A stretch of 64,000 nucleotides of DNA from Candidatus Omnitrophota bacterium (GCA_030698625.1 JAUYMS010000003.1:83471-147470), one strand, 5' to 3'. Positions 211 to 44,275 are shown, counted from the stretch's first letter. Notes: a model not told the origin generated them from the sequence alone. A program made the numbers and translations.

Positions 211-217
211 CCGGTTC

Positions 218-880: not shown

Positions 881-905
881 ACCCAAATACGACAGGATCA
901 AATTG

Positions 906-1025: not shown

Positions 1026-4000
1026 ACCGCCGCCATCTCCGCAGCCCAACCGAACTTATTTTCACTCCAACTGCCCTCAGCCCTCGGAAACGTAGAAGAG
1101 TCGTTTCGCGGACTCAGTACAAAGACAGTCATTCTCATCCAGGACGCACATGATTCTCTCGAAGCCCAAGAACATATTGCGGAACTCGTCGACCACCTGG
1201 TGGCAGAAAAGGGAATAAAAACCGTTTACGAAGAAGGTTATGAGGGAGAGGTCCCAAGCGATGAGCTTTTTGGTTTTATCGAGGACAAGGATCACCGGGA
1301 AAAGGTGTCCTACTTTTTTATGGATCGCCTAAGAATCGGCGGCGCCGAATATGCCCACATCAACCGTAAAAAAGATTTTCGTCTCATCGGTGCCGACAAT
1401 ATTGACCTGCACATCGAAAACGTATCACGGTATCAGGATCTGTCCAAGACAAAGCGGGAGACGGTTGAAGACCTTCGGGCCCTAATCGGGCAGGTGACAT
1501 CTCTGGCGCACAGGTATTTCCCCCAGCCCCTTAAGGAGTGGATGAAACTCAAGGAGCGCTTTGAAGCGGGGAAGTTGGGCCTTACCGACTATCTCAAGCG
1601 GATGATGGCGCTCAGCGACGGAGTCGAGGAATCCGAAAGCATTACGGTCGGGCCTATTATCACGCTTCTTGTGGCCGCCGAAGCCTCGGGCGACGACAAG
1701 CTCCTGGAGCAGATCCGTGATCTCGATCCCAAAGCGGTATACCGTGAAATCGCCGACCTCGAAGACCGGCTGGCCGGCATCTACGTGGAGACGGACCGCG
1801 ATCGTCATATTTTCCGCTTCTACCGGGACCTGACCCTGCTCGGACGCTTGAGCGACATCGCGGTGACTCAGACCGAGTATGGTGCTGTTCAGAAGGCCCT
1901 GGCACGATTTGATACCCAAGGGTTGGCGGAATTTATCACCAAGAATACCGGGAAGTCGGTCGTGCTTTCGCGGCAGTGGGAGCGTAATATCCGCAATGCG
2001 GTGCGCTTCTACGATGTGGCCCATGCCCGGCACAAGGCCCTGCGCCGCCGCCTTGAAGAATTTAAGTCCGATCCCGAAGAGGAGACTGCCGCGCTCGTCT
2101 TCGGAGGTTTCCACACCGAAGATATTCGTGAGATCCTCAAAGAACTGGATATATCCTTCCACGTTGTTTCACCGCGGATCACCGAGATGAGCGAGCGGCA
2201 TCAGAAATATTACAAGCGCTTGATGTCGGCCGGCTATCATGACTTTGAATTAAACGACAAGGTTCGTAGGGCGTCGCGCGCCGTGACTTACTTTGAGCTC
2301 GATGGCAGCGCCGCAATCATCGCGCGTGCTCATGATTATGTGCGGAGTGAATTGCGGGATTTGCCGCGCGAAATTTTGAATACCAATATTGAAAAGCATT
2401 TGGGCGGCGAGGCGGTCTTACAAGCGGGCGTGAAGCCGGAAGCACAGACGGACGCGGATTTGCTTGGTCCGGCGCCGGGCATCGAGAGCGTTGTCGGTTC
2501 TGAGCGCTCCGAACTTAGGCGTCTGGAGTATGGGGGGACAACGCTGTTATTCACCGCAGCGGCCGGAAGTGCGGCCGCAGGTGCGGTCCTCGCATTCCTC
2601 CTGCCGTGGATGGGGCTGAAGGCTTTGGCCGCTGCAATCGGCCTCGGGGCGGCAATCGCCTTTGCGGGCAGCGCCCGCAGCCGTATCGCCCTTGCGTCCA
2701 AAGTTCGGGCAGCCCTCGGGGAAGTCACCGTCATCGGCAAGGGTTCCTACACCAATGTCATGGGACACGAGTCCCTCACCAACAGCCTTAGGCCTGAAAG
2801 CACAAAACTCTCACGCGGTTGGGTAATCCTGCAGAAACGCGGCGCAAAAGCGCTCAAAGACCTTGAGGAATCCGTCAAAGGACCGCAGAACCGCGATGCC
2901 GAGGAAAAGGCTGTCTATCAAGCGCTGTATAAACGGGGATTGGTTCCGAAGACCGTCTATCTTGGGCTCATGCCGATACGCGACATCAAGATCAAACCCA
3001 CCGACAGAAACATGCGCGGCATTTACGACGATGCCGAAGGTCAGTTCCGTAAGGACCGGAAGGACAAGGACAGCCGGCTGCCGGATCACCGCAGCGCCGA
3101 TATTGTTCGCATTGCCATTCAGGAAGAGGGCCTGCCCCTGCATGAATATTTCAAGCTTGTCACCGCGAAAAAAGGCACGGCCATCACAGCGCTCGTAGAG
3201 TTTACCCAAAAGCTTTGGGGTGAGGGGTTCATCGACCTTGACCTGCGCATTGATAACTACATGGTGAAGCTGAAAAATGGAAAGCCCGTCACGGATGCCG
3301 ATGGCAGCCCGGTCATTCTCCTGCATGACTTCGGGGCCGTTTTTAAACTTCCGCGCTCGAGAGAAGGCATCGAGTCCTTTCTGAAAAGCACGATCAATAA
3401 GTCCGACATCTCAGCCGGATTTTTTCTCCTTAGAAATCTGATCCACGTCAACCGCAGCTTTGAGCAAGCCGGCAAAAAAACTATCAAGGTGTACAGCCCC
3501 ATCGCAGACTCCCATGAGAATGCCATTGCGAAGAAGCTTTTCCCCGGCATGAGCCTCAAGGGCATTGCCGAGATGTATGTGCTGGGCCGCAACGAGGCGA
3601 ATCACGTTTCGACGGGCTTAAAGACCTATCTGTTGGAATTCTTTCAGCGCGACGGGCGAGGAGAAGTGATCGAAGGTCATATCGAGGAACTGGCGCGTCG
3701 TATTTTCTTGGCGCTTACAGAAGCAAGCGGCGATCGTGACGACCGCACCCGCTCGGAATTAAGGGCGGCGGATGCGGGGTGGATGGCAGAGCTTGACGAC
3801 GCGTCGGCGCATCAGCTGGCCGTCGACGTGATGCGCCGCCTGGAGCACGTGAGTCCGGAGACGCCTTACGAAGCCAAGTTAGGGGCGGGCAGTGTCTTTA
3901 AAATGGGCGAACAGAATATTGCGGTCGAATACGGCACAGCCAAAACAGGCGGTTGGTTTAGTAAGGACACCGCGGTGATGCGCATTGGCGCGCTGGTTTT

Positions 4001-7000
4001 TGTTCAGCTGCAGCGCGGATCAGCGCGCTCTCTTACGGCACAGCTAAAAAAGCACATGATAAATCTGGGGGATCTCTATCAACAGAACCGAGGCAACATC
4101 ATTTTCATGCCGCCCGCCGACTACTCACGGCCTTCAGCCCAAGACCCCGTGCACATGATTACGCAGATTGCGGTTGCCGCCATGCTGGCAAGCCGTGAGT
4201 CTTTTCCGGGTGCCGTTGTCACGGATCTGGGCGCCGGAGACGGGTTGCTTTCGCAGATTGCCCTGCGGTTGGGGGCCAAGCGGGTCGTCTTAGTCGACAG
4301 GAAGTACGGACAGCTGAGGAAGGCCGAAAAACTCCTTCGAGGCCAGGGCTATGACCAATTTGAATTACTCGAAGCCGATCTGACCGATACCCGCTTTATC
4401 AAACGCATCCTGGAAGAAAATCTCGACCGGGAATCTACGATTGCGCTCGTGAATATCGGACCGCATAAGCGCCTCTACGGCGACGCGAACCGGATCGTTA
4501 TGGAGCGAATCATGCGGTGGACCGGCTTGGGGTTGATTATCAATGCGGGATACTATGGCTCCGGGTGGATCTTCCCGGAAGCCCACGACGAGGAAATTAA
4601 GTATCTCGAAGAATTGCTTCCGCACCATGGCTTTGAAACGACGGTCTATGAAGACGGTATGGGTTGGCGCCGGGCCCTGACCGCGAAGCGCGGCGCGCAA
4701 CGCTCTGAGTTAAGAGCGGAAGAAGGCAAGGCTGAATTTATCGCGCGTATGGAACAGATCTTTGCCGGCGTGAAGCAGTCGGGAAAAAAGCTCGGCACGG
4801 AAGAGTTCGCAGAGCGCATGGGTTATCCGGGGCGCTGGGTCACGGCAAGAAATCGCGCCAAGCGTCTGGGTTATCCGCCCGCGACCTTGCAGCAATACGT
4901 TGAAACCGGGGCCGGAAAGGGCAGGGCCAGGGAAACCAAACAGGAATTCGCGGCGCGCCTGGAAAAGATTTTTGAATCCGTCAGGAAGTCGGAGAAAAGA
5001 GAAAAGATCTCGCGCAAGCTTTTCATGCGCTTAACGGGTTATACGAATAAGTGGGATGCCTTACTGCAGCGCGCGCGCAAGGCCGGCTACGCGTGGGAAG
5101 CCATCAGTCCCTATGTGGAGGCAGACGAGGCCCCGTCAAAGATTGAATTCTTGAAGCGGCTCCGGGCGATTGCCGACGCGGTGAAGCGCCATAAGAGACG
5201 CGACAAGATTTCGCGTGATTTCTTCATGCGCCTCATGGGCTATCCTGAAAATTGGACTGCGCTTATTCAGCGTGCACGCACAAGCGGCGTTACCCTGGCT
5301 GACATTAGTGAATTTGTTGAGAGTGCCGAAGAAACGGGGGTCGATGACAGAGGCCGCATACGCGAAGAGCAGCTTCGCGATGCCGTCACGACGGCCAAAG
5401 AAGAATTCGGTATAACGGGTCAAAGCATGCAAACCCTGAACCGCGCAAGGCGCGCCGAGTATCTGAACCGCGTTGCCGCACTTGTCGGTTACACGAACCG
5501 AAATAACTTCCTTCACCTTACCGAAAAAATGGGCGTGAATCTCGCGGCATTCGACATTCACCGCCTGGAGCGCCTCGTTCCGTATACGCTGACCGAAAGC
5601 CGCCAGTGGTTGATTGACAATCTGCCGAAGCCGGAGGATACGGAGGGCCGAAGGAAGTGGATCAGCACGATCATGCATCTTACCGGTATGGGGATGCTCG
5701 GCAGGACGGCCGCTTATACCTTGCTGCGCGCTGTAAGCTCGGGAGAATCCGGATTCAGTGAACTCGACAAGCCGGTGGCTGAAGAACTCGAACTGGATCT
5801 CTCGACCGTCTCCTCGTCGCTGCTTGGTAAAGAGCCCGTATCCATGGACCGTTCCCCGAATCTCCTAGACTTTTTTGTCACGGCGGCCAATCGCAAACTC
5901 GAGATCGAGCGGCTCAACCCATCGGCCCGCAGCCGTCAGATTACGATGACCCCGCTGCTCGATAATCATCTCTTTCCGTATCACTTGGAGCAGATGCTCA
6001 CAACACAAAGAACGAGCACAAGGGCAGGGGTGCTGGTCGAAGAAGTGATCGGGGAGTTGGGGAGTGAACTGAATGCGGAGGAGCGTACGTTGCTGCGGGC
6101 CGTTGTGCGGGCCCGTGCCGCGGGCACGCGCTTGCGTTATCAGACACATCGAACCGTTACCGCCGCCAATGAAATCTTGTTTGGGACCCGGGAGACTCTT
6201 GGGAGTACCGGCGTGTATCACAAAGTCAAAGCTGCCGTTGAGAACAGCGAAAAGCTCCGCGCAGCATTTGAGGCTTTGCGGGGTGATCTGGATCTTTCCA
6301 CGGACCGTTTTGACCGCGGCTTTTTCGAGTGGCTTCATACCGGGGGGTATCTCCATGACGCCGAGATTCATGGCATTACGCGGCTTATGGTTTACGACAT
6401 CGAAAACGTACCGTCGCCGCATCTCTTGCCGAAACTATCGCCTGAAAACAAACAAGCCTTTGCCGTCGCCTACTTTAGAAACCATCACTTTCAGCAGATT
6501 GCCGAGAATAGCGCCGCAGTCCTCGATGACCCGGGCCTTCCGGTGCATACGCTCTCAGCCGGGTCTCTGCGGGGATGGATTCAGGGGCGCCGGCCCCGAA
6601 AGATTGTGGGCGGCATTCGCAGGCTCGAAGCCGCTCTGAAACCGGGGAGTCCGGTTCAAGAGGTGCGTGAAAGTTCTACGGAACACGAACGTGAAACAGG
6701 ACAAATACTCGCGGGCGGGGGGCACAATAAGGATCTGTTGAGTTTTATTAACGGCCTGCATATGCGAAGGGCGAAGGTTGTCGCATTCTTTAATTTGGCG
6801 ACAAGGATTTCAGAGTCGGTAACGGGTCCGAAGGCCCTTGAGCTGAAGCATGCCTATCAAACTTTGCTTCTTGGGGTACTCAAGAACCCTGAATTGGAAG
6901 TCGACTCAACGCCTGTCCATCTCATGCTCATGAGCACGATTGTTAACCACCGTCACGACGAGGCGTTTTTAAGAAAATTCTTCGAGACCTTACTCGTGGC

Positions 7001-34000: not shown

Positions 34001-37000
34001 CCAGGTAAGACTCTATAATCAATATCCGGAAGTAAAATATATCATGCATTCGCATGAGTACGTGGAAGGCGCGCCGTTTACCGATGAAGTGTATGCCAGT
34101 GAGGCGCTTCAGGAATTTGACGAGATCGTGAAGGTGGTCGGAAAGGAGCCGGGCGTTAAGAATGTTGCCGTCAATCTGAAAGGGCATGGCAGTGTCGTGC
34201 TTGCCGCCGATCCGGAATATTTGCGCAATACCAAATATGTCTCCCGGACTTTTATCAGCGAGAGGACGGAAATGAACGCTATCCTCGTAGGCGGCCGATT
34301 TGACGGCGAGGGCGGGACGCCGTCGGCACTCATCCAAGAACTTCACGGGGCGTTCCCGCCGGGCGTGACGCTGCACAATGGCGGATCTATCGAAGAGTTG
34401 ACTGCGCTATTCAGCGGGTTGAGCGAGTATGAGGTCATTATGTGGTTCCCCGAGATTCCGCGGGGAGAAGATACCCTTACGTCGAAGATTAAGCTGGTCT
34501 ATCCCTTCAAGAAGCTCATCACGGCGGCCCACAACCGAAGCGGCGACCGCCCGTTCCAGGTGATAATGGACAAGGCGCTCGGCGTGCGGAGCAATTTGGT
34601 TGTCGAATTTTACGACGGCGAGAAGCCGGGCATGCGGCTCTTGGACCCATTATCCAACCAATACGGTGATACTACAGACCCGGCGCTATTTGCCGCTGCC
34701 ATCAGGGAGCGGCTTGAGATCATGAGGAAGTTTACGCGCCAAAGAACGGTTTTGGCGGGTGAAGCCAAAGTGCCGCCGAGGAATGCAGAATTTGAAGAAT
34801 ACCTCGGAATCATCCAGGCGTACGGCGAGAAAGTGCATGAGTTGATTCATCCGGCCGAAGGTGTCAAACGGTTCCTCGGCAATACCTCATTCCGCGCTTC
34901 CTATATGTATCCCGACGCTGGCTACGACGACCTGGTCTACATCTCAAGACGGAACGTCGATAAGCGCAATCTCGATGAAACCGGCTTTATCGCAATCGAG
35001 AAAGACTCGTTTAAAAATAGGCAGATCGGCTACTATGCGGACCGGGATCCCATCACGGGCGAAGAGCAGAAACCGAGCGTAGATACCCCGACCCAGGTGC
35101 GGTTCTTTTCGAAACTGCCGAACGTGAATTTTATCCTGCATTCCCATGTGTATATCGACGGCGCACCGTTTACTGAAGCCCTGTGCCCGTGCGGTTCGCT
35201 CGAAGAAGTCGAAGATGTTCTAAAACTCATCGGTCATGACTACAGCAGGACGAATTTCGCGATCAACCTGCGCGGGCACGGCAGCCTTCTCTTCGCACAA
35301 AGTCTTGATTATCTAAAGGAAGATCACCCGTACACGGCCCGCCCGCTTCCCGAGCTTCTCAATACCGACGGATCCAAGGCGAGAGCCGCTGACTACTTGA
35401 AGAGCCCGTATATTCGCGAAGCCCGTATCGTCGGTGACGGAGAAACCGTTACGGCCGAAATCTTGCCGAACTTCGAAACCCTCGAAGCCTTTGCCCGGGA
35501 GGAAGGGCTCTACACACTGCGTGAAGTCGATCTTCGGAACGATCCCGCAGTTTATCAACTCTTTATGGATATCGCCGGCGGTGTCAACCGGCTGCTCGAT
35601 GAGTCCGAGCATATCCGTAACATTGTCCTTTTAAGTTCTCCGCCGGGCGCGGACAGGCAGCAAATGATCGATACCGCGATAGCCGAAACCGCTCTGGAGG
35701 AGACAACGTCGGCGTACTTCGAGAGCGAAGAATTCGCCCGGGAGATTCTCGCCGTGCCGGGCCGCGAATTGCCGGAAGCCTATGTCAACGTACTGCGCCG
35801 CGATTTTCGTGCCGGCCGGTCGGGGCATTATAAGCGGCTTTTAGGTTTTACGGGTTCCGGCGAAGCCATGTTCGAAAGCATGGAAGAGTATTTCAATAGT
35901 GATGCGGCGGTTAAGATCTATAAAGTTCTGTTTAAAGGGCGCGTGGCGGGCAGAATTGTCGTCAACGAGAGGACTAAGACACTCATTGATGCGATCGTTC
36001 TCGAGCCCTACCGCGGAAACTATCTCGGCGATGCCGTGATCGGGCTGCTCGATCAAAAATACGGCGAATACTCGATCGTGATCCCGACCGGTGTTCCTAT
36101 CTATAATTTTCTCATCAAGCGGGGCTTCAAGGTCCTGCACTCGGAGTCGTTCGGCGCCATTGACCTCGATATCATCAGCCGTACTTCGCATAGCGAAGAG
36201 GATTTGGCGCCGGTAAAGGATGTACACCGTACGATATTCGCGCTTTATGCAAATGCCAAGATGGCTGATTTATCGGCTGCGGCGAAAGACCCGAAAGAGA
36301 GCGGCCTTTACAGGAATTTTCCCGAAGTCTACGATCTGCTCTATCAAAGGTTTTCCAGGCGTTTAGGGGATTACCTGGGCCTTGTTAAGGAGAATACTCC
36401 GGATGGCGGTGCCATCATGGACGCCGCTGCGGGAACGGGCGAGGTATCGGTGCCGCTGCTTCAGGCCGGCTACCGGGTCCTTTCAGCAGACCTTAATGCC
36501 GGAATGCTCGAACAGTTGCAGAAAAAGGCAGGCGAGGGCAGCGTTACGGCAAATACGGCCGTCGCAAGCTTCCATGAATTAGGCGATAGGGAGGACCAAT
36601 TTGATACGGTCAGTGTAAGGCAGGCAATCAATTATCTGGTTGGTGAAAAAGAATTGGTCAGCGGCTTAAAGGCGTTACGCAAGCGGATAAGAAACGGCGG
36701 TAAATTCGTGTTCAACGCGCCGAATTACAATCCCGCGACTTTTACGCCGCCCGAGAGAGGGCCGGATCATATCAAACTGGGAACGATGAATGCGATTGTG
36801 TGGGAGAGCAATGCCATCGATGAAAACGGCATACTAACGCACCATCAGCGCGCTCTCGTGTGGGACGACAACGGCCGTGACGATGTCCGTTACTATCATG
36901 ATAAGAATACGTTTCAGATGTATACGAAGGACGAACTCGACTCCGCTTTGAAAGACGCGGGTTTCTCCGAGATCTCGTATTACTCCGAGCACGGCAAGGC

Positions 37001-37655
37001 CTATGACCCCGACGGCCCTGTCCTCTATGGTGTTGCAACGGCAAGCGAGCGCTCCGAGCTGCGGACAGCGACAACGATTGAGGATTTGGCGGCGCGGAGC
37101 AAGGACCTCTCGGCGTATGAAAAGGTAGCGAAGGCGATGCGTAACCTCAAGCAGGCTGCCACGGTGTTTGTGGACTTCAATGATCTCATCAAGTTCTCGG
37201 ATGAGCAGTTGGAAGAGTTCTTTGTGCTCGGCGCGATGAATCAGCGGGCCGTGAAATTCGTGGTTTACAACTATCACAACCGCGATGTGGACGCCAAACT
37301 CGGTGCCTTTCTCGCGCTGCACAATGTCGAAACACCGCGTATCGATGATGCAACTGCCTTTGAACGTTTCGGGCTCAACGAAAAGCGTACGGCAATTCAT
37401 TTCTCCAAATTTGCGCCGGGTAAGGACCCGAAGAGCCGCTGGAGTACATTCGCGGCTTCTAAGCTCAAGCGCTACTACCGCTACACGACCGAAGAACAGG
37501 GTTTGCTCGGCATTGCCCTGCTTTACGCCAATTTCGCGGAGAACCTGCCGGAACTCGTCGAGGACGAGGGCTACATCATCGGCACAGCTGAGACCATCAG
37601 CGACCTGGTCGAACGCTACCTCGCCGAAGACATTGCCGTCTCCATAGCCGCATAA
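906..37655 (+). CDS. Giant multi-domain protein. It is 12,250 aa counting from TTG 903, but ATG 906 with an AGGA ribosome-binding site 9 nt upstream is the likely start. It has a Sec signal peptide and mosaic enzymatic domains separated by recurrent RSELR motifs.
   Basis: Single uninterrupted reading frame of 36.7 kb in the ORF track. N-terminal positively charged segment plus hydrophobic core and an AYA cleavage-like site. Recognisable domain motifs throughout (see sub-features). RSELR occurs 15 times in frame. Confidence 0.85.
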   Translation: MRKKNFKRGFCIWQKLTAAFVSVCMILLSVVEYVPAAYASTAAISAAQPNLFSLQLPSALGNVEESFRGLSTKTVILIQDAHDSLEAQEHIAELVDHLVAEKGIKTVYEEGYEGEVPSDELFGFIEDKDHREKVSYFFMDRLRIGGAEYAHINRKKDFRLIGADNIDLHIENVSRYQDLSKTKRETVEDLRALIGQVTSLAHRYFPQPLKEWMKLKERFEAGKLGLTDYLKRMMALSDGVEESESITVGPIITLLVAAEASGDDKLLEQIRDLDPKAVYREIADLEDRLAGIYVETDRDRHIFRFYRDLTLLGRLSDIAVTQTEYGAVQKALARFDTQGLAEFITKNTGKSVVLSRQWERNIRNAVRFYDVAHARHKALRRRLEEFKSDPEEETAALVFGGFHTEDIREILKELDISFHVVSPRITEMSERHQKYYKRLMSAGYHDFELNDKVRRASRAVTYFELDGSAAIIARAHDYVRSELRDLPREILNTNIEKHLGGEAVLQAGVKPEAQTDADLLGPAPGIESVVGSERSELRRLEYGGTTLLFTAAAGSAAAGAVLAFLLPWMGLKALAAAIGLGAAIAFAGSARSRIALASKVRAALGEVTVIGKGSYTNVMGHESLTNSLRPESTKLSRGWVILQKRGAKALKDLEESVKGPQNRDAEEKAVYQALYKRGLVPKTVYLGLMPIRDIKIKPTDRNMRGIYDDAEGQFRKDRKDKDSRLPDHRSADIVRIAIQEEGLPLHEYFKLVTAKKGTAITALVEFTQKLWGEGFIDLDLRIDNYMVKLKNGKPVTDADGSPVILLHDFGAVFKLPRSREGIESFLKSTINKSDISAGFFLLRNLIHVNRSFEQAGKKTIKVYSPIADSHENAIAKKLFPGMSLKGIAEMYVLGRNEANHVSTGLKTYLLEFFQRDGRGEVIEGHIEELARRIFLALTEASGDRDDRTRSELRAADAGWMAELDDASAHQLAVDVMRRLEHVSPETPYEAKLGAGSVFKMGEQNIAVEYGTAKTGGWFSKDTAVMRIGALVFVQLQRGSARSLTAQLKKHMINLGDLYQQNRGNIIFMPPADYSRPSAQDPVHMITQIAVAAMLASRESFPGAVVTDLGAGDGLLSQIALRLGAKRVVLVDRKYGQLRKAEKLLRGQGYDQFELLEADLTDTRFIKRILEENLDRESTIALVNIGPHKRLYGDANRIVMERIMRWTGLGLIINAGYYGSGWIFPEAHDEEIKYLEELLPHHGFETTVYEDGMGWRRALTAKRGAQRSELRAEEGKAEFIARMEQIFAGVKQSGKKLGTEEFAERMGYPGRWVTARNRAKRLGYPPATLQQYVETGAGKGRARETKQEFAARLEKIFESVRKSEKREKISRKLFMRLTGYTNKWDALLQRARKAGYAWEAISPYVEADEAPSKIEFLKRLRAIADAVKRHKRRDKISRDFFMRLMGYPENWTALIQRARTSGVTLADISEFVESAEETGVDDRGRIREEQLRDAVTTAKEEFGITGQSMQTLNRARRAEYLNRVAALVGYTNRNNFLHLTEKMGVNLAAFDIHRLERLVPYTLTESRQWLIDNLPKPEDTEGRRKWISTIMHLTGMGMLGRTAAYTLLRAVSSGESGFSELDKPVAEELELDLSTVSSSLLGKEPVSMDRSPNLLDFFVTAANRKLEIERLNPSARSRQITMTPLLDNHLFPYHLEQMLTTQRTSTRAGVLVEEVIGELGSELNAEERTLLRAVVRARAAGTRLRYQTHRTVTAANEILFGTRETLGSTGVYHKVKAAVENSEKLRAAFEALRGDLDLSTDRFDRGFFEWLHTGGYLHDAEIHGITRLMVYDIENVPSPHLLPKLSPENKQAFAVAYFRNHHFQQIAENSAAVLDDPGLPVHTLSAGSLRGWIQGRRPRKIVGGIRRLEAALKPGSPVQEVRESSTEHERETGQILAGGGHNKDLLSFINGLHMRRAKVVAFFNLATRISESVTGPKALELKHAYQTLLLGVLKNPELEVDSTPVHLMLMSTIVNHRHDEAFLRKFFETLLVAAHGMSARVSNREAANMLARTIQGSAVYLAAGPKGPITREGLVHAYQRSAAEKKRYLKVQTVRDDAEFRLMGSLAVPVGLRPDNVYFSKLYNAVIAKVYAPVRVISDEDAAGHKVRNRSPKTLRHVRESQKFDLAKIRSEADEHRRRLRQAERLAYDFWGTQGEPGYWPEEKVKGYIWTHYRRWVREVVWENGRRDMGSHDGVDMEDLMDLARDSVAYVGYTYNAPEEFTLNLDDPGSPEERHAMITGVEALVQEKDATLKEFELMVKDKDKDATELKRAGFGLKKAERAKAYVESVLTLHRHYLEGDAEKAANVYFDLAEQRETIERNIMRSLFTSYLRPSILHYKSRRAVKQAFFELKAISLDQPLPDGDGELMDIAIPVLRSRDEEAVIVDDPRLASFRSIAIKQHFAQVRTSALSDTDRDQYIMRLYYGLEPAYAGVDLTQTDIATIVAFHGGALITDERIRQIIARHDKDIFRRVVHLAQADNLKSWDTFMLQLGVKEPDDAPPPVVIPIEENESKIWLGSHIWIATLGDHAGKYLSFKIIAYDRYNPRSADAGYNNVELQKRIYPYMLEIVVRDPTKPEKGNENLVAVFHVHVIHRPTGSVQQLPIIAVRGKPHYFLRVDSGAHDSTLEPAAEKVDRDQGERPEPTEVPEEPVREAAIEEPVDRFKDWHESAIPHLQRQLKSAQATSLGHPDFEELAPVGEHGRIWVAYQKGNVERKAFFHTGIAGEGQAWVGRRYDLSKSLYVYRIVRVSDTGEAESTRYYRLDLDDHGQPTAMGFREFKYDGSVWEKVSIPGPFWLKQRSELRSASNTDDFDPRLIDTYSRLFVEGLLNTVESEGYPEPYQGAVKEARSRLNAVDMPSLADVLQPVEAALKIPVTLDGLSGAADETKVYELARLQYKVRALNKFRVPIREFIKNLMERAEFAARIQSSTEGPVRMGLIHFEEEGHKSGQYSNGLADIVIDWMSTWDASVNAIVFRNIRFDYFFNIVGLANALQSKFFPDAPDPDALVVLLRESLRNAVVWGNKSRPDNLAAIRWRFEGEELVIDVIDRNREEIDFTKKPEPPRGVKPIYYSPRTDPASGGYPGDIKPFIDPAFLTGDRYDFPILDKSGRRLGQVLHLRYPYPQRSELRDEDDEEVLGYVADHADFDTTGFITSRFSGGSNVVGLGDLHTNLAVKAQTIDLIRSGEITHLVMELNGEDLNKALKNRESLREAIRRHFEILVINDEDIESFVDVILAAQTAGVELVFPDPRKTSRPDDPGQETVDMEAALAIGSIVRSDQDAKVLVLFGAEHTRRGLRWPRKEGRSRLTLGENLKTEEGVRYYSVYLESPDRRDTSDYTLVRGDKYRQQGFALTNMASFPRQMLDRAADTDFFRPEEIDAYVQLPLLSYEDYRTLVAAGEDLPKFVLPEFTEDLAVKSSVGENEPERRRAIREKAARLVALLRTQPDADWPIEEMVEEFNGFRLDVSEYAPEIGVIYLWLSPTDSFTISVPTYFAVPSQGIVVHAPEFSDDRYEDEIIQLPIEIAKLLNGNEIEKDSSGIFSPAGSDIYWKEWRQRHAYQYYRTLVGPIGAGAVQAILARESGRKWRVVDFFAGDGSFLRYLSKHLATVQPDTDVDYAMVEKFSELIDQAPRTLAGTAVEIHQADIRHLQDVKAIIGKKPVIVTAFGGLNSGVVKQDDAEAIAKRIYAALPAGSYLVLGGYSAMMVNAKELAAMGFEVLNTGLPHYMVTEDREAPNQLYILRKPYPWYRGGLWRSELRSAFDYDAYRKRQEAGLEVILEEIDALRTDGRWEKMPLSARLQLIGERADVVPLDWGAWLELLEKTGMWFGPEREKMEDPTDQVEATMTGDYQILQAPSMRQPQQGETYSRYLTSYGACDCLVLTLYHPGTKVGMIDHLYLERKKNPAERIAGALKTMHEEYGIDPREVRAEISGGQMDLSNFKAIQILEALETHEVPIYFFQALDFPLVMLDGYYPYAEGDGHVALDLETGRHYRLHDIIPPAQKRRHRSELRKGKPIEDYLKELENEKAVFGPDNAGEFSESHRYVDGILKKLILTAGFDPAEYSLYLVDDPEPKAWIQGRYPAVFISLGLLRFFGRHRLSQDALAHLLAHEVLHLRQHKEDEHYSGPSSWSEYYAEYYANEYDADVRALRLMAEAGFSIQDAESTFEKLREGMGKNDYSPLGSYPQMRTRSDRIKQIRDYGRWPDSARAAPQAMPQEVLREAMRFSLRRQKWHRANRINQVKELSELIETADALNDLTFILWSGLGRLKKRRVLKSAKVPHAVESALVTRLAALPIWPEYLSADTRDLAAKLLGKFLAATVYGKFMERTVLIDHELLNEKALLDELSEIFHSAKNAKDVLDLISAAIFVTMPQRIALGRETAGDAQKSYAAYQNRWHAEPRRGGDTVGWVYTWEQFLGRALLEEVPYVPIAGRQVRWGPFIRVVGWIQGAVRFVLGRFVSIDWIQVRDPLAGWTAADLGRVYEAGAGRTWGGYHIGPMRHSNVVGIDHWLFQAAINHPELVKAMDTDTFRRFVKDATKIAVAKGPGHSDDPETQEAKMRNMIYEAASLDAAKREVIQNLLGNDYDVFGFFRTGIESFPDTWIFGENAPGTGYAYAEKRMDDLIRQLHARRGSISGMVLHHSEVLHASDRLAESAKLTQTEHLRLMAHLAKTEWYSADMMWHSLLGWESGRVQWIPSFLGQADDELNAFIDLDLRARLGDGVWESLPVTGRFIFYAYLNDIYQLPADWEAWDREVQSWSTEQIRLLHRVVAQSTNRPVFDTDARLDREAIDRRPPLPYRRSREELLLRLSVLGLLKEQGVSLKKYLPPVELGRSAPSGAFGFADQLADLPRGRKEDNPRVRRAMDHLFHMFRLEKGRSPWINRTDIEKNGEQGMTAILGYVFAETGETPADMADRIAHWLPATAYRNWVLYLIFMHHYLGRTLGVKIDRKRLGDTSYMAEVWASVSDNQRESARHFIREKIAPLMVQDARLEGLNLARVFDHFIHEKLHEVDEAAYEKALPGFQDVRYFVPGTVLTQLDLMMGGVFSPGISEQIADAASDPQDILEQISTAYPRASAERDRLLVELADHARADSGVLKDIMPLLDGPWYKQEIGVRALRSIRASQSTTSVDDSLKLIENWLPSATPIRDGLLHEVIQEEVGTLPELNAVEEKLFALQPNEQRRLRGNQAVALMGLEFFQAIFGYGTPMASKLDLLDWFFFEGGKPDILRRYEFHFRISFEGFIEESGDLAKNEPEVAREVRKRLLAFVLDGDQGILSDDDATDELFNRLLARWLPENTEFDIVIRTVLESLIGLSDRLRKREILMHLLAGPDDLSALGNDPELRQAKVAKLILEANGLVGIKVGQVLANSALVTDMPVPMRTELANLQDRADPMDRAVSLRILDQIHNGKLHDHYPRIGRVLGSASTSVVYDAWHRSGRHVALKLLRPTARNRTVGDLAMLKLIPADVIERLNAKNIAIPEWLENYLGLLVGRVERLVMPELFYTVEAQSMDRFRVRQLARGSALRIPEVVENPGDDLIAMELIEDAVPVSDEAGINTRGRQMGDVRRDIAQEMIVEVHEGEYHGDPHPRNFLVDKDGRLWMIDLGAVYEVSPKSAAFLISLVAALHMGADIRPILADLLTANADPAALESAISEAARVETIPEKIAQIFLTLDQQALLPEDLALTQRLFLQGGHIFEGLSLWDLMQIGEQLKDGPQRSELGSETPVVREGLRPDLTPFIGIGVHRKDHLSYGNSAAIEGAEKLTDFLRDRDLLHEIQLTVETEAQSQIGREIASKLDRVPDATMRLIVDGAFMQKCCSEAVLGIFDHLEAKPGRFAELHLPLDLILYWDDRQMRDSPPEEKEEYIAMQVLPNLERRGFGYKAYGVNHQILAERDPPKGGETRLVVKLWHSAKEMENWADSLAAKPLRSELRALEPVMPVKKVLVMTGEYSYMPFDKEREWERYVVDYLRKAGVEAEFVYANGAGGTLRRFEEEFDEIGLVIATDDVLRGVRERERLIGRNPVPYILMKTTYLRMDEPELEELGNAVYVHSGLGTLDELKEIIPEIVGNAEGAVYEPFWTGEGIEAKPAREGVEHPAVELLEELRQDLTNPTFLKKIYRDTTDYDAEPLTARFTLIPGYSLPAFPMTPASFRDDVHRRIIKEVYSILPHVIEFPVEATGRAPVVIGADSDEGIARWAKTMRVGSRFDQWISDKMPLVHIEQSLNRIMTEIDGKERANKALRRSVYRKLGWRVHDLEIKSEAAGDEAGQTIFNVMGTWLLANPEAVTRAWVAEDEDGAAAGMLVLKRTIANETFGEHREMVNSAIAIASDAATRGKGIAPRMIRESFEAMRQRGIRYYFADIDYRNKPSFRTFIKTAAAAGATVTHFPEMTTSREEERPFLIDLFSDQPAPRDLPEALPSDPDEAWAYVLAQGLMQEPSDEYSWTPPAADGDRAVREYRVKDVTEEIEADEDAGTWIDFQELYDDKVHAKLRDITEYPDPAGHEAMMRGFEVQPDGSFDTVKLEDGAYSAIVRIADRAAVQDTQQAFRKFVDAIAKVFPADVRDQVRVWETGEDNPHIGTAVFQVPEVLLGGKQPRLQPRHIEPLQELVREMTQDEETIPLTFLGYGIGADGGFVRLYSDPAGRFMKLRNALLLKGHKVSQMYASGRGTNIIAMTGGRILHLPYSADAAIAARQKDRVLEIVRDRAQAFQSQWEQNLAEPQILDVDGLTWVLEDKWLTERNEQGVEDVFFPFGGRSELRSLSEDLLAELAAEYAVSRLTSGRNSAEEQELMLKTMRSDVHKAILWRYKGLEFELRERIEEVVFEAVQAAVRTYDGVRLSYLDYFYATAQEAILHFFAKSVPAAKRPYLLSEPLEAYLRFLSLENRRPELDEFLGLTVNDMKNEDYLVLQRETDAANYEDSISVPVRAAAPENQLPKPVQIANAGMVRLAKAFGIQAADITAAMIHSVPNTEWAVLSLFFGIDGELIQDPEQIARRLTELGYRDANNEALRGEKVSDYVVRGLNRLQNRETGRTRLADALGKKPTEITPDLLQALTSREEALIRYKFGIGKSRLMTHLEIAEKLTKEGFSFNDGVHVTKTLYRILQKLKTAQTGWQLLAADLGKPEEEARRDFEKNAAKMTQLETLAVTHYYGLGVNRIKDKTRLAKHLSDLTHETIRRNRLYRLLARGLAVLRGEKKRVRVKSAYQPPIISEIPEEVGVTGDELLQVMRAAAGDQSLAEALVPVRDAWYALHPLGREILIINFGLGVTAAKSLPEISKRLKESPYWVEKSDPAKTTLTRHRRLALADLKQRVSGLNRLAEDTGVSEEYLPGIISQGLALEQKRVLKMTFGLDTERIVPDKLIVDIFRDAWSEEINAMRVRTVRRDALQRIREFAVNAGYADESVLTKRKKDMSKRTPRPPKWTRERVDQLIAESADEKLRATILHRQGLGGLVNAASGFYGSWQKALEAHHRDITKINIRKTPQRSELRADSPELSDSRDAEYKKRLTDILEQRALIMELRELEPASDEMVAVILERLGEYAASAKASLVDVEDFKFVLRLVTNPAWRTGKFSEKMKALTHLWGYVVFTAVREHRMNPQLRSSVDHLITDMLGAEFENRAPLRRILINTEVGSPYHEKPLHGEEQMLGSDFVYLIKSLAKNLNLSGRLAERNDRLVGPILRAFEGRYDFTLTEAERGKILQLMEGNDLLAIFVSAMDNGLTRPPSREMTLEDIRKIRGKFREVVADSIGSYPVSARDRILVRILQKQPELGRELMAEAQAAVSYSRKPIDFEAAGASTVKRRKGVNVADTEGFGDFAVKHPDLHAVLTSRESLLTLMQTAALVRDFFPYTLTAPDKLQTPVQFAIEYGMYLPLGHGYYLTPISGSFKRHLLFTMDDKNRPVMTVPIKIPGKIPGRRPALNGDLDRYRDAREVFGDDMEIAGAMGTVEPAGLESVMLYGEEREVTEKDHLRVLVLEGPEAGWRVEYLRHKDLQRISDHYPKYHGDASLVADDIARSILRGVAQWHALNYLGKGPGEGSGTDLHTGNWELLTPPLNGDPEQGISVRNIIDLASLHQYVEDRAAFDGQRMWDLKTVIDARDVLTGPGVTFSLLALHLKENEHDFLEDPHDLFEKYTAIYSEEYEAVKQIAKRPPPMSYREIYTTILGETHEAPLIITGLTGAGKTILAENYEKYLREGEVEVPAHLVHSDGFLRYSVMALLIRLLITLGWIKVDALTKEGFIQRHYFDLEKRDRFVDEVKAGKYEGKQLVIEGIFSDILFAQALNAKTLLIEANSASVYEERYVDRSMKDKKRLKLPAQFLARTLISNRLNQQLLDSRENHDLVLNLDDIFKPKLTVNRPPKKAELRRSGLLKVIVDALTAPAGIRERLTADGVKFGSVPEPYVSTFDLEGLPWVFTQYRNEDKDSPLLSLDELKEQALTLTGTLEVKFDGGARNAGVFLGYVQEVPHPVVIKYFQAGVSDMDAYDRALELYMAQIVAFSGVGPEFYGVLVEDGEIVGYAMQAAPGAFATQTSDLLYLMRYLYQSGDADNKAVQQNVMRIEETMARYAMVPVDGHLNVLLSRTGHISLIDAGNVRPASELAEFRMPSWMSSEEKVKQLFQLMQAYLQKRRPLITRRGAIHTLLDHTQAEHAAPLVSVTTREMMKDGLHESLVKYVRQGGHLVLTTPAFKEEAFLSAIDGIHRNFAETGEIELLGRIHFIASDNNLKDIFVYESDAGGYRLLPDDPMEPDPLLKLVRYLNTAGRKVLPLMSYDYESASVPRRAYFDTAHRVFSQTPHAGKYVAIWDIEEITERLAERAPEELEKGRKELPAQQDFMEWTFESTPFEVPAGNQVKVIVGEKGRGAPGFVWAGVNDWEKTYLIPLVQNPATGRHEAVLPAGTTAFTFYWRDSPKAAGERWEGRDFHVRSAERSELRAAAVNITETVLPNAGLKGMASQDAKVLIAELDGDFLLESKTWPERNARTFTAAERKIFETGEGLTPFSEFDLTHDDVASVTHSIYDRTSGIIGIRAAVEDKAGTVRYIRFSGAGTNEMEKLKTLMPPISEMTAEGTVLRVSAGNQGDLAGNFTVHSRKERGWEFFGANDEPWRGARYKAFVQLENGKRMLGEVELVGEAKDNRIKQVFITPVGGRERVELDAMQTRSVIVAYTLGWGETPADELLRKNYAMSSDIRHLLAFPFFRGGPQFYNQTVLTRERYKAAMNFRPLDFDIVDMTGNAIPVAELLGQLDKYGYVAKDTADEVVKPGDYFIADENNIRLIFHPAVYPVNILVTSQDGEKAAFVSIQGVSGNLGANYWNVFEWIQEQLPWAFAAFALDNGKDPSWQSYNEDGTEAELLVTGRDLVNATVLVTKRDGFQRSELRLPARTAEEMMTRREFIPRAALAVAAGLVVLYESPNIVLAADEEKGEVTLFLLSHGTVEDFETVKPHVEAVIKRLLDAGKTVHYFVEAADLEAELSLTSLIYAALAPDQSADLREVFGNLYTEPLPEAFLETSFEQDQLFVPLLQGVERGLQYMKDHNEIPADRIADYELVLKLLPVLRKIKEKFRGIVRGTASPDSDDVTREVAIERLTKLFDEFYDATDHSYEPDGLAKAPFAHRLHYALNRDKDGKPWGFWGAQEMYLREGTFAPELGTRLLVHRERLLTPGQLDAYTTASVQYSKLFEALGFPGNPKSVIEIEGKFPEAVFYATQGTAEERLALVRKAYYEAGARFESAVMGGRDRALSQEAVRLTPEDKDASVITRGLAHVAAGRLLADNAATDVRDMKQIQGRAQPAVDAPNTEAELREMRGGNPGDAIKLKVGQHMVVGLISDLVREVHKDHLKAYRERYENLAAGIPDTLQGEDREKEIEKQMNQAPYFRAMDPAPLPKRLERFFVEDRRSIWNAMADHPEQVEEFLLQAFRIHAAYQRVVAATLRKKKETEPEEDPVEMAGRIYATYLAMLKLRSASIPTPLEAEELPFKLITKAVADGVYEGDVKTFLDTFEAEAEKVMDFKPSLLRRERYRSELRDDEPVKEIPLYMAYARHLNAADTFDFAKPFFDEAIQKTSRKDGRPNGIMIIEHVDSNLAAMFMNAMHRVVDPVQFPDSVVGAWFRQQLTIPKQWTPYEKMESFLVQYRQDQPFRTEVDNQYQAFLKHIGVERIYGIYDLKQRIGPASVLQHAELDYFIEKGIGQAALEPARFETAATAYLFGELDKEIRQALTQRRYDDAANLHLKSIDLLEDSGKVRDRIMNQFVGELIREDPERAIYHFRGFNHERNHDLLTGDGQKAAGVLVGSRLGQRPVFSTTTFQAMDGAEKNLLLIHFMNEVLDHLLHEEKLSSHRSIQEFLAFHLSLTQGLEREFKSLEQPEDYDAWFREIFDAANETVQRKSLSLGLALLEVLEERNILSRSELRTEGGDKEKPRGQITRRTFLDWMVKAANAAAAASGVSPGALLEAAVSIPAEKPDLSLAALARRFAHNPDSLKELEQGVAWLQAFTILYGTDKKEEDYELGLINLKLAVLDGVRTRKESEGVTALSEEEAASRLETALNSLESIAQSEGLKKAPHLLERLRSLMAEPFSFKAALSARTALIRHAWGTVLGPRSELSRVAKDVAEWYGRDLRAAQAVMAEIAEQLTPEGFRKIRQRELIFERNMDNYFDRSLLPEIARGEAEIDWSNLLEDDYRARMSRFKDLAGQLPAAVRKQVFANPKVREAERSYRQWQRESWKRKEERETSADPESLKMIIVGGRFDDEGGRPSSLVNQIHAALPAGTKRVNGGRFDAIPGLAKTLADYDVIIWFPDIPNDKAKYRNLKARYPDKLLVTSKRNHEGSYSDLEVVDHALKLKSNLVIEFSDTIPFNMRLLDPLGNVYEDTQDASSLAKSMTRRLKVIAKVRRQGTKRVAVASPVKVPDEPEFFDIIRDQAARFHEIMSERRPETEENEEFCFRCERGFPSMREGDFAFVSKRGAANTERHFTRKDMVPVDLASFRETGEINFYGPNKPAVDTPVQVRLYNQYPEVKYIMHSHEYVEGAPFTDEVYASEALQEFDEIVKVVGKEPGVKNVAVNLKGHGSVVLAADPEYLRNTKYVSRTFISERTEMNAILVGGRFDGEGGTPSALIQELHGAFPPGVTLHNGGSIEELTALFSGLSEYEVIMWFPEIPRGEDTLTSKIKLVYPFKKLITAAHNRSGDRPFQVIMDKALGVRSNLVVEFYDGEKPGMRLLDPLSNQYGDTTDPALFAAAIRERLEIMRKFTRQRTVLAGEAKVPPRNAEFEEYLGIIQAYGEKVHELIHPAEGVKRFLGNTSFRASYMYPDAGYDDLVYISRRNVDKRNLDETGFIAIEKDSFKNRQIGYYADRDPITGEEQKPSVDTPTQVRFFSKLPNVNFILHSHVYIDGAPFTEALCPCGSLEEVEDVLKLIGHDYSRTNFAINLRGHGSLLFAQSLDYLKEDHPYTARPLPELLNTDGSKARAADYLKSPYIREARIVGDGETVTAEILPNFETLEAFAREEGLYTLREVDLRNDPAVYQLFMDIAGGVNRLLDESEHIRNIVLLSSPPGADRQQMIDTAIAETALEETTSAYFESEEFAREILAVPGRELPEAYVNVLRRDFRAGRSGHYKRLLGFTGSGEAMFESMEEYFNSDAAVKIYKVLFKGRVAGRIVVNERTKTLIDAIVLEPYRGNYLGDAVIGLLDQKYGEYSIVIPTGVPIYNFLIKRGFKVLHSESFGAIDLDIISRTSHSEEDLAPVKDVHRTIFALYANAKMADLSAAAKDPKESGLYRNFPEVYDLLYQRFSRRLGDYLGLVKENTPDGGAIMDAAAGTGEVSVPLLQAGYRVLSADLNAGMLEQLQKKAGEGSVTANTAVASFHELGDREDQFDTVSVRQAINYLVGEKELVSGLKALRKRIRNGGKFVFNAPNYNPATFTPPERGPDHIKLGTMNAIVWESNAIDENGILTHHQRALVWDDNGRDDVRYYHDKNTFQMYTKDELDSALKDAGFSEISYYSEHGKAYDPDGPVLYGVATASERSELRTATTIEDLAARSKDLSAYEKVAKAMRNLKQAATVFVDFNDLIKFSDEQLEEFFVLGAMNQRAVKFVVYNYHNRDVDAKLGAFLALHNVETPRIDDATAFERFGLNEKRTAIHFSKFAPGKDPKSRWSTFAASKLKRYYRYTTEEQGLLGIALLYANFAENLPELVEDEGYIIGTAETISDLVERYLAEDIAVSIAA
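2520..2700 (+). other. Two predicted transmembrane helices (GGTTLLFTAAAGSAAAGAVLAFLLPWMGLKALAAAIGLGAAIAFAGSA) immediately after the first RSELR.
   Basis: About 50-residue Ala/Gly/Leu-rich hydrophobic stretch flanked by charged residues. Begins 5 residues after RSELR at 2505-2519. Confidence 0.5.
3050..3420 (+). other. Protein-kinase-like fold domain 1 (catalytic-loop-like DLDLRIDNYMV and DFG motif ILLHDFGAV).
   Basis: Order and spacing of D-x-x-x-x-N and DFG motifs typical of ePK-like, RIO, Kdo or LPS kinases. Motif-level only. Confidence 0.35.
4140..4560 (+). other. Class I SAM-dependent methyltransferase-like domain 1 (motif I VTDLGAGDGLLS, followed by an acidic motif II VVLVD).
   Basis: Gly-rich DxGxGxG nucleotide-binding motif, then a hydrophobic strand ending in an acidic residue about 20 aa later. 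Rossmann-like periodicity. Confidence 0.55.
4722..5330 (+). repeat. Three tandem ~68-aa protein repeats (consensus …EF..RL..I…VK…KR.KIS…FMRL.GYP..W.AL.QRAR..G…..IS.YVE).
   Basis: Read from the translation: repeats start near 4722, 4941 and 5141. They are conserved at the amino-acid level but diverged at the DNA level. Confidence 0.6.
11640..12240 (+). other. Class I SAM-methyltransferase-like domain 2 (motif I RVVDFFAGDGSFL).
   Basis: DxxxGxG motif with hydrophobic beta-strand context and a downstream LVLGGY strand. Confidence 0.4.
13250..13620 (+). other. Zincin-like metalloprotease motif region (LAHLLAHEVLHLRQH; HEVLH at 13344-13358), M48/SprT-like context.
   Basis: HExxH embedded in a hydrophobic helix. 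A downstream Glu/His-rich segment (KEDEHYSG…EYYAEYYANEYDAD) could supply a third ligand. Confidence 0.45.
17090..17940 (+). other. ABC1/UbiB-family atypical protein kinase domain.
   Basis: N-terminal ABC1 signature GQVLANSALVTDMPVPMRTELANLQDRADPMD (compare GQxLSxRxDLLP…LxxLQDxVPP). Nucleotide-binding segment IGRVLGSASTSVVYDAWHRSGRHVALKLLRP. Catalytic HGDPHPRNFLVDKDGRLWMIDLGAV (compare HADPHPGN…IDFG). Confidence 0.75.
19900..20160 (+). other. GNAT-type N-acetyltransferase-like domain (motif A IAIASDAATRGKGIAPRMIRESFEAMRQRGIRYYFADI).
   Basis: R/Q-x-x-G-x-G/A acetyl-CoA-binding-like motif followed by a helix and a beta-strand with an aromatic residue. Motif-level only. Confidence 0.4.
22170..23190 (+). 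repeat. Array of at least four sigma-70 region-4-like (LuxR/ECF-like) helix-turn-helix repeats.
   Basis: Repeats LTSREEALIRYKFGIGKSRLMTHLEIAEKL…TKTLYRILQKL; LETLAVTHYYGLGVNRIKDKTRLAKHLSDLTHETIRRNRLYRLLARGL; LHPLGREILIINFGLGVTAAKSLPEISKRL…TLTRHRRLALADLKQRV; LEQKRVLKMTFGLDTERIVPDKLIVDIF…AMRVRTVRRDALQRIREF. All fit the pattern L..RE..VL.LRFGL……TLEEIG……VTRERIRQIE.KALRKL. Confidence 0.45.
25480..25900 (+). other. P-loop NTPase, uridine-kinase or PRK-like (Walker A LIITGLTGAGKTIL at about 25534-25557).
   Basis: GxxGxGK[ST] preceded by a hydrophobic strand. A downstream acidic or hydrophobic Walker-B-like strand (QLVIEGIFSD). Confidence 0.5.
26380..26800 (+). other. Protein-kinase-like fold domain 3 (VVIKYF beta3-Lys-like, DGHLNVLL catalytic-like, ISLIDAGN DFG-like).
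   Basis: Motif order and spacing as in APH, choline-kinase or ePK-like folds. Motif-level only. Confidence 0.35.
29157..29255 (+). other. Internal twin-arginine (Tat)-like signal peptide MMTRREFIPRAALAVAAGLVVLYESPNIVLAA|DEE, located 8 residues after an RSELR site.
   Basis: T-R-R-E-F-I matches the S/T-R-R-x-F-L Tat consensus. It is followed by a hydrophobic h-region and an A-x-A (LAA) signal-peptidase-like site. The position is internal (aa ~9419). Confidence 0.5.
33207..34271 (+). repeat. Duplicated module, copy 1 (~355 aa): a Rossmann-like domain (MIIVGGRFDDEGGRPS…) plus a class II aldolase/adducin-like domain (…YIMHSHEYVEGAPFT…NLKGHGSVVLAA).
   Basis: Clear collinear amino-acid similarity to copy 2 over the full length. 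HSH and GHG metal-ligand-like motifs at positions typical for class II aldolase or epimerase folds. Confidence 0.55.
34272..35325 (+). repeat. Duplicated module, copy 2 (MNAILVGGRFDGEGGTPS… / …FILHSHVYIDGAPFT…NLRGHGSLLFAQ).
   Basis: Same architecture and motif order as copy 1. DNA diverged, so this is an ancient tandem duplication. Confidence 0.55.
36380..37030 (+). other. Class I SAM-methyltransferase-like domain 3 (motif I AIMDAAAGTGEVS; motif II RVLSADLN; post-I FDTVSV; motif III GGKFVFNAPN).
   Basis: All four canonical class I methyltransferase motifs in the correct order and spacing. Confidence 0.65.
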
Positions 37656-38655: not shown

Positions 38656-38670
38656 AATTACCTTTTGTGC

Positions 38671-43465: not shown

Positions 43466-43468
43466 TGC

Positions 43469-44271: not shown

Positions 44272-44275
44272 AAAG

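Follow-up and report, generated by a model that had tools for sequence, protein, structure and literature searches.

A giant RSELR-punctuated multi-enzyme protein from an Omnitrophota bacterium, possibly an exported polyprotein

The subject of this analysis is a giant gene on a 64,000-nucleotide stretch of DNA from Candidatus Omnitrophota bacterium (GCA_030698625.1, JAUYMS010000003.1:83471-147470), referred to below as the window, in which positions are counted from the first letter. According to the list of open reading frames (ORFs) and the translation, the gene is one intact ORF at 906-37655 (+), encoding 12,249 amino acids (aa) plus a stop codon; the frame itself opens at 903 (903..37655, +), and the ATG at 906 is the likely start codon. 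The product starts with a signal peptide and a head domain, continues with about 15 different modules, many of them enzymes, that are separated by the pentapeptide RSELR, and closes with a tail domain. Proteins of this kind from Omnitrophota, which are ultra-small, host-dependent bacteria, rank among the largest proteins known. The reading that we favour, with slightly less than even confidence, is that of an exported, MARTX-like polyprotein made of exchangeable enzyme cassettes and belonging to a family essentially confined to this phylum. The giant protein is of value chiefly for the testable rule that it reveals for the subdivision of Omnitrophota giants.

The giant gene and its enzyme modules

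The G+C content is even across the window at about 55%, and the 36.7-kb frame runs through this DNA without a stop codon. Its features, in the order of the chain, are the following, the RSELR motifs being given further below:

906-1022 (+): Sec-type signal peptide or signal anchor (MRKKNFKRGF, a hydrophobic run, AYA and then S), predicted from sequence and hydropathy
1008-2342 (+): head domain (aa ~35-479), with a putative EreA/ChaN/Tiki/TraB-like hydrolase fold
2541-2672 (+): hydrophobic stretch of 44 residues (aa 546-589), either a single long helix or a hairpin of two
2718-3485 (+): kinase-like module 1, at the level of motifs (GKGSYTNV / ILQK / IDLDLRIDN / HDFG)
4218-4397 (+): class I S-adenosylmethionine (SAM) methyltransferase 1, near threshold (Pfam 25.8 bits vs 27, E 1.7e-5)
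10002-10211 (+): weak HATPase_c_2-like segment (E 0.001, 19.5 bits vs 27.4)
~11778-12086 (+): class I SAM methyltransferase 2, weak (Pfam E 0.006-0.08)
13140-13505 (+): M48-like zincin (Peptidase_M48, 22-26 bits vs 20.3)
17172-17891 (+): ABC1/UbiB atypical kinase (Pfam ABC1, 88-90 bits vs 22.9)
19860-20123 (+): GNAT acetyltransferase (Acetyltransf_1, 22.4-22.9 bits vs 20.7)
25524-25940 (+): P-loop NTPase/kinase-like domain, sub-threshold (AAA_18, E 2.3e-4, 22 bits vs 29.4)
26343-26825 (+): kinase-like module 2, at the level of motifs (VVIK, LE..AQ, DGHLN, IDAGN)
33204-34229 (+, approximate): aldolase-like copy 1 (Aldolase_II, 22.6 bits vs 22.2)
34275-35321 (+, approximate): aldolase-like copy 2 (Aldolase_II, 38-39 bits)
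36309-36968 (+), core 36411-36698: class I SAM methyltransferase 3 (Methyltransf_25/11, 43.8/37.9 bits)
37140-37652 (+): tail domain (aa ~12079-12249), HAD-like in its alpha/beta fold, without a conserved DxD and ending in ...SIAA

A first-pass annotation of this DNA had named eleven catalytic domains, which were examined with Pfam, run over overlapping chunks of 1,000 aa and then over each inter-RSELR segment, and with searches of PDB sequences; a call passes where it exceeds Pfam's own gathering score. Six of the calls lie above this threshold, three lie below it but are consistent with the domains named, and two are carried by motifs only, which leaves the inventory partly confirmed, with nine of the eleven supported; the profile search segment by segment, which that annotation had proposed, bears out most of them. 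The HATPase-like segment was absent from the earlier list.

The ABC1/UbiB kinase is the clearest case, as it matches the known family in Pfam, in the PDB (5yjz at E 6e-11, 7cy2 at E 9e-9) and in every family motif, namely KVGQ, the Ala-rich loop GSASTSVVY, VALK, HGDPHPRN and IDLG. Unlike the stand-alone UbiB/ABC1 membrane proteins of quinone biosynthesis, the module is embedded in the middle of a predicted exported chain of 12 thousand residues. The two class II aldolase-like domains both clear the Pfam cut-off and include the zinc-site motifs HSH and GHG, while the acid/base position is, in our reading, Asp and not Glu. The zincin had been predicted from HEVLH, which stands where it was placed (13344-13358) and is followed downstream by NEYDAD; only the N-terminal 78 of the 186 profile positions align. 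The GNAT call agrees with motif A (RGKGIA) and with PDB entry 1vhs (E 2.9e-4). Among the three proposed methyltransferases the third is well supported (PDB 3d2l, E 2.6e-8; motif I IMDAAAGTG, acidic beta-2 VLSAD), the first stays near the threshold (PRMT chains in the PDB at E~0.01; motif I VVTDLGAGDG, acidic beta-2 VVLVD) and the second is weak, yet all three contain the motifs, the second as VVDFFAGDGS together with an acidic beta-2 residue. The Walker A motif GLTGAGKT lies at 25533-25556, one base from the earlier 25534-25557, which was out of frame; the P-loop is consistent, although below threshold, and the specific label "uridine-kinase-like" finds no support.

The two further kinase-like modules, earlier placed at 3050-3420 and 26380-26800, do contain kinase-type motifs, and neither has a Pfam match at E<=5 or a significant PDB sequence or profile match; for the second, the ErbB2 N-lobe appears at a non-significant E~0.3. 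When the segments without support, three in number, were joined into one query, 5.8 billion proteins yielded no match; the longest protein that this search returns has 2,554 aa, so that giant relatives may be missed. Aligned to PKA with hhalign, both modules place the catalytic loop and DFG in the correct register, though at no better than E 0.02 and 0.17. The few homologues available, drawn from related loci and a representative-protein search, keep LD....N and HDF invariant in module 1 (three sequences), with the Lys replaced by Arg in one, and K, E, N and DAG invariant in module 2, where the catalytic Asp is not invariant. These two kinases are plausible but unproven. One relative, P0158, has tandem cassettes of module 2 (aa 1303-1512 and 1610-1859), both of which lack the Asp of the D-x-x-x-x-N loop and keep the Asn and DAG. 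Just downstream of module 2 in the giant protein, a sub-threshold match to GLMA_2nd is found at 26946-27053 (aa ~8681-8716; E 4-5e-5, 23-24 bits vs 27.7).

Because their catalytic motifs are intact, the supported domains are not systematic pseudo-enzymes, a possibility that the first-pass annotation had itself raised, and judged from these residues they look active. Its description of them as post-translational-modification enzymes is an assumption without substrate support; UbiB/ABC1 kinases and class II aldolases are not known as classical protein modifiers.

The same annotation had regarded the chain as a string of many enzymes and not as a repetitive structural giant, which agrees with the self-comparison: it finds almost no internal repeats, the sole large duplication being the aldolase-like pair (aa ~10767-11108 vs 11124-11472, E 8e-33). 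Roughly one quarter of the chain is taken up by named domains, and some of the segments between RSELR motifs are without any match. Two sets of short tandem protein repeats were noted besides, one of ~70 residues at ~4716-5510 (aa ~1271-1533), starting directly after the fourth RSELR motif, and one of ~85 residues at ~21825-22575 (aa ~6974-7223); their repeats are 27-51% identical and match no Pfam family.

The RSELR motif at module borders

RSELR occurs 16 times in the giant protein against 0.03 expected from shuffles, and every R-[S/A]-E-x-R in the chain is exactly RSELR. The sites are:

2343-2357 (+): motif 1, directly after the head
2505-2519 (+): motif 2
3750-3764 (+): motif 3; an aligned motif is present in the homologous cassettes of the related loci L044 and L020
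4701-4715 (+): motif 4
9417-9431 (+): motif 5
10392-10406 (+): motif 6
12276-12290 (+): motif 7
13035-13049 (+): motif 8
18795-18809 (+): motif 9
21273-21287 (+): motif 10
23463-23477 (+): motif 11
27786-27800 (+): motif 12
29118-29132 (+): motif 13
31053-31067 (+): motif 14
32205-32219 (+): motif 15
37050-37064 (+): motif 16, directly before the tail

The codons vary among the 16 sites at every position, which indicates that the peptide and not the DNA is under selection; a DNA-level repeat or a recombination site is rejected on the same ground. The motif falls at domain borders: twice after the head, then after kinase-like module 1, methyltransferase 1, the HATPase-like segment and methyltransferase 2, just before the M48-like zincin, and between methyltransferase 3 and the tail.

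This arrangement extends to the relatives of the giant protein, which are recognised by the same head. In 99 complete proteins with both head and tail (308,297 aa) R-[S/A]-E-x-R is found 629 times, where 20 would be expected. In 87 of 92 proteins no more than 200 aa separate the first motif from the FGGFH of the head, and the last is at most 60 residues (median 23) from the tail in 76 of 93. Across 1,224 instances the flanks carry almost no information, and the Ser position is occupied by Ala in 21%, for which reason the Ser is rejected as a phospho-acceptor. A general bias of Omnitrophota proteomes is likewise rejected as the cause, the motif being 12-fold rarer in the other ORFs of the same loci. 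Those other ORFs that have at least three copies look, by size, strand and position, mostly like neighbouring or split family genes. At locus L013 (CAZKMJ010000008.1), a head-only ORF of 509 aa precedes two further ORFs of the same strand, at ~11310 and ~13288 (+), each of which contains five R[SA]ExR; frameshifts or errors of assembly have probably broken up a single family gene here.

Cassettes common to several family members sit at a different position in each, and for most of them the homologous block ends at the motif, or within about 40 residues of it, in both partners. In some genomes the motif hardly varies at its fourth residue, which is L for L041, L044 and L065, A for L010, L015 and L039, and V for L069, L076 and L077; in other genomes this residue is mixed. 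Paralogous heads within a genome are hardly closer to each other than heads of different genomes (44% vs 42% identity). A fourth residue that is nearly constant within the genome despite such divergence may reflect a recognition factor common to the whole genome. In the reading that we favour, RSELR would be a recognition site and probably a cleavage site.

Head, tail and the side of the membrane

The invariant residues of the head include H82, E109, E110, E113, E148, H151, R154, G400-G-F-H403 and H432. Its fold neighbours are two EreA-like proteins, ChaN (score 9.2), the MARTX effector RRSP (8.5), the type III effector HopBA1 (8.4) and a TraB protein (8.3), and Foldseek independently ranks EreC at the top. 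This superfamily, EreA/ChaN/Tiki/TraB(PrgY)/RRSP/HopBA1, includes proteases (Tiki, RRSP), esterases and a haem binder, and the head has in common with it the alpha/beta fold; the invariant His, Glu and G-x-x-H residues of the head may correspond to the catalytic set of the superfamily, which they resemble in arrangement. The head differs from these proteins in its first motif, QDAH against G-x-x-H, in a helical insertion of ~220 residues, and in its constant place behind a signal peptide, as the first domain of a very long protein. None of the superfamily's Pfam models (PF04187, PF01963, PF05139) matches it, and only one of 23 relatives matches PF04187, at E 0.025; searches of PDB sequences with profiles of head and tail gave no useful match. 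The EreA/ChaN/Tiki-like fold is therefore only moderately supported, as sequence-level support is nearly nil.

Outside Omnitrophota the family is essentially absent. Among database proteins, 64 match the first ~470 residues at 35-48% identity (35-49% with the GTDB loci included), a scan of GTDB species representatives yields 152 head loci, several per genome and none identical to the window, and all but one of the head-bearing records with a taxonomic name come from this phylum. An exhaustive HMMER search returns 8,443 cluster representatives (2,897 at E<=1e-30), all of which have the head at the N-terminus; the longest of the best 150 matches measures 6,726 aa, and the complete proteins of the retrieved head-bearing set have 805-6,720 aa. 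The content downstream of the head differs in every member. It includes, for example, APH kinase, M23, methyltransferases, UDP-glucose dehydrogenase, sigma-70, TPR with epimerase, DHDPS, amylase and CAAX protease, and further WD40, transglutaminase, NUDIX, HAD, ROK with radical SAM, HATPase, glycosyltransferase, SecA and EPSP synthase.

The tail, of ~158 residues, is detectable in 98 of 176 head-bearing proteins and lies in every one of them within 40 residues of the C-terminus. These proteins end in AA (63), SA (34) or HA (1), the final Ala being the sole invariant column of the tail alignment. An active HAD phosphatase is rejected for this domain, the DxDx(T/V) nucleophile motif after strand 1 not being conserved, and so is a role as autotransporter, sortase or C-terminal anchor, the domain being alpha/beta and without a terminal hydrophobic helix or barrel.

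An accretion of fused gene fragments without coherent function, arising by decaying fusion or as an assembly artefact, would account for a cargo that is heterogeneous and partly housekeeping-like across the family, for the large unannotated part of the chain, and for the fact that within the searched collections the contig is matched exactly by only one fragment of 3.5 kb. It is very improbable, as it has to explain a 36.7-kb frame kept free of stops at this G+C content, intact catalytic motifs, 16 exact copies of RSELR maintained with different codons, and a head and tail conserved in thousands of proteins.

Two parts of the giant protein are clearly hydrophobic, the N-terminal segment and aa 546-589; nothing convincing follows in the next 11,600 residues. 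The relatives have the same type of N-terminus, and this, together with the composition described next, is consistent with the secreted chain that the first-pass annotation had assumed. Cys makes up 0.08% of the chain (10 residues) against 1.17% in 18 neighbouring proteins, a 14-fold depletion, and 0.15% in the family. Apart from aa 11 and 24 in the signal peptide, Cys residues occur only as CxC, CC or CxxC pairs (3913/3915, 5853/5854, 10969/10972 and 11427/11429); two of the pairs fall within the aldolase-like modules, where they may bind metal. In about three quarters of the relatives the head is followed by no hydrophobic stretch, which argues that head, cargo and tail normally lie on one side of the membrane. 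The predicted signal sequence, the relatives without transmembrane segment and the Cys depletion together favour export.

The main rival to an exported polyprotein is a membrane-tethered cytoplasmic multi-enzyme scaffold, or "metabolon", in which the head lies outside, aa 546-589 cross the membrane once and RSELR serves as a linker, hinge or docking peptide. In such a scaffold ATP, SAM and acetyl-CoA would be directly available to the kinases, the methyltransferases and the GNAT module, the post-head stretch could indeed be one long helix with RSR...K...R on its C-terminal side, and relatives contain housekeeping-like cargo. "Multi-enzyme metabolic clusters" and many giants that possess transmembrane segments only are also described in a recent paper (Nielsen and Lui, 2026; 10.64898/2026.06.07.730766). 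The scaffold is nevertheless unlikely: in the relatives that lack the stretch the cargo must share the side of the signal-peptide-led head, the degree of Cys depletion is unusual among cytoplasmic enzymes of this genome, aa 546-589 split naturally around MGLK into two segments, and four invariant residues between unconstrained flanks are more than a passive linker would require.

Signal peptide and Cys depletion would also agree with an extracellular or periplasmic machine that processes surface polymers or nutrients, or with a surface coat or adhesin, which is not injected into another cell. The aldolase-like modules and the M48 protease could act extracellularly, and Omnitrophota giants of the Archaeovorin type have been read as prey-wall-degrading, sugar-processing and coat proteins (West-Roberts et al., 2023; 10.1101/2023.11.21.568195). 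Somewhat less probable still than the scaffold, a surface machine is at odds with Pfam scans of the giant protein that contain no glycoside hydrolase, glycosyltransferase, lectin, dockerin, HEAT, TPR or adhesin repeats, with a chain that is essentially non-repetitive, and with recognisable enzymes that depend on cytoplasmic cofactors.

A possible polyprotein and its genomic setting

In the exported polyprotein that we tentatively prefer, the chain would leave the cell through Sec, head first, and cleavage at RSELR would then yield the head, about 15 free modules and the tail. The cutter might be the head itself, a candidate because the proteases Tiki and RRSP are among its fold relatives, or else a genome-wide factor. 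Once released, the modules could make up a varying set of effectors for the epibiosis or predation that has been proposed for Omnitrophota; the kinases, the methyltransferases and the acetyltransferase, which need ATP, SAM or acetyl-CoA, would be active only within another cell. The protein would thereby be a functional analogue of MARTX, with conserved arms, exchangeable cargo and release through processing.

The MARTX toxins of Vibrio and relatives are very large, Cys-poor, single-chain exported proteins, in which conserved ends bracket a strain-variable array of effectors that are exchanged as cassettes and released at short inter-domain sites. The giant protein resembles them in the conserved head and tail around variable cassettes, a likeness that is analogy only, with no sequence homology known, and its head has a fold in common with the MARTX effector RRSP. 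In contrast to MARTX, Pfam scans find in it neither RTX or glycine-rich repeats nor a cysteine protease domain, and type I secretion genes are not located nearby; its predicted export signal is an N-terminal Sec signal, its ends are globular instead of repeat arms, and a fixed pentapeptide stands between the modules.

Several points weigh against the polyprotein. About three quarters of the 12,249-aa chain is unannotated, and cleavage at RSELR has not been seen; a short motif that is so conserved might serve docking, folding or modification instead. Signal peptide and topology are read from hydropathy only, and if aa 546-589 formed a single helix, the body of 11,600 aa would be placed in the cytoplasm. 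Housekeeping-type cargo in relatives (sigma-70, SecA, EPSP synthase, UDP-glucose dehydrogenase, amylase) is odd for effectors. No secretion-system, toxin or immunity gene is seen in the window around the giant gene, and across 79 related loci there is no conserved neighbour, no gene recurring in more than 10 of the 79. The interpretation of the first-pass annotation is partly supported: the layout of its multi-effector arsenal parallels MARTX, while the missing toxin, secretion or immunity genes nearby and the cargo of the relatives speak against it, and the effector idea is compatible with the evidence but unproven. A system spanning the whole phylum, in which thousands of Sec-exported proteins with an EreA/Tiki-like head and an Ala-ended tail would be cut at R-[S/A]-E-x-R into freely exchangeable cassettes, with a fourth residue tuned to the genome and enzymes delivered to, or acting on, host or prey, is a more doubtful proposition than the polyprotein itself.

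Multi-enzyme giants of Omnitrophota are known already, as the "Archaeovorin" type (West-Roberts et al., 2023) and as the class of "multi-enzyme metabolic clusters" (Nielsen and Lui, 2026). Most of the published proteins have a signal peptide and/or transmembrane helices, and the combination of methyltransferase, HATPase and GNAT is their co-occurrence module 1. Cleavage is suspected there, whether and where they are cut being stated as unknown, and a role in predation or symbiosis is proposed that is still speculative. The giant protein fits the looser multi-enzyme class in its length (12,249 aa against at least 10,000 aa), in its Omnitrophota relatives and in being tiled by many distinct Pfam families, none dominant in copy number. 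It fails the features that define the Archaeovorin type: that gene exceeds 90 kb (>30,000 aa) with numerous transmembrane regions, against 36.7 kb and at most three hydrophobic segments versus dozens, and the SecA DEAD/preprotein-binding domains and N-terminal C39 or S8 peptidase of that type have no Pfam match here at E<=0.5. Of the Archaeovorin-type content it has methyltransferases and one peptidase, and Pfam scans find no glycosyltransferase, glycoside hydrolase, NUDIX, HEAT or dockerin; glycosyltransferase, glycoside hydrolase and NUDIX are carried by relatives with the same head. Most of the family, at 0.8 to at least 12 thousand residues, is too small for the cut-offs used in those studies. 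The sections and term searches consulted in these papers contain neither the head domain nor the Ala-ended tail nor the RSExR motif, and an earlier description may exist elsewhere.

For such proteins the family supplies a candidate cutting rule, RSExR at module borders, that is statistically overwhelming. The head and the Ala-ended tail are handles by which they can be found and classified at any length, and the motif shows where they can rationally be divided before their structures are predicted or their modules are expressed and assayed for toxicity. If the modules are released effectors, the family would be a very large reservoir of enzymes that serve epibiosis or predation in bacteria; otherwise the motif still marks the unit of domain shuffling in these genes. 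Should the phylum-wide polyprotein system be true, dozens of enzymes would be released per gene, under the first concrete cutting rule for bacterial giants, and viral polyproteins and MARTX toxins would have in this system their bacterial counterpart.

The remainder of the window is ordinary chromosome, with nuoJ/K/L/M/N, a NuoI-like ferredoxin, an atp operon, an M28 peptidase, a desaturase, tRNA-Gly and the cluster nusA-infB-nrnA-truB-ribF-pnp-dut. Directly 5' of the giant gene, an ORF at 161-703 (+) encodes an SseB N-terminal domain (PF07179, E 1.2e-16) behind a signal-peptide-like start. It is probably not a dedicated partner, and was dropped as such, because a homologue adjoins none of the 79 related loci. 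Downstream, 38101-44367 (-) holds a partial complex I cluster of nuoJ, a 101-aa ORF, nuoL, nuoM and nuoN, which abuts the atp operon. The 101-aa ORF (43469-43774), located between nuoJ and nuoL, is probably nuoK, and the NuoI-like 2x[4Fe-4S] protein is encoded after nuoN, an unusual position for NuoI. The tRNA-Gly(TCC) gene at 52673-52743 (-) overlaps the 3' end of an ORF at 51883-52701 (+) with a weak DUF748 match (33.8 bits vs 50), and this pair is adjoined by the M28 aminopeptidase-like gene at 50954-51880 (-).

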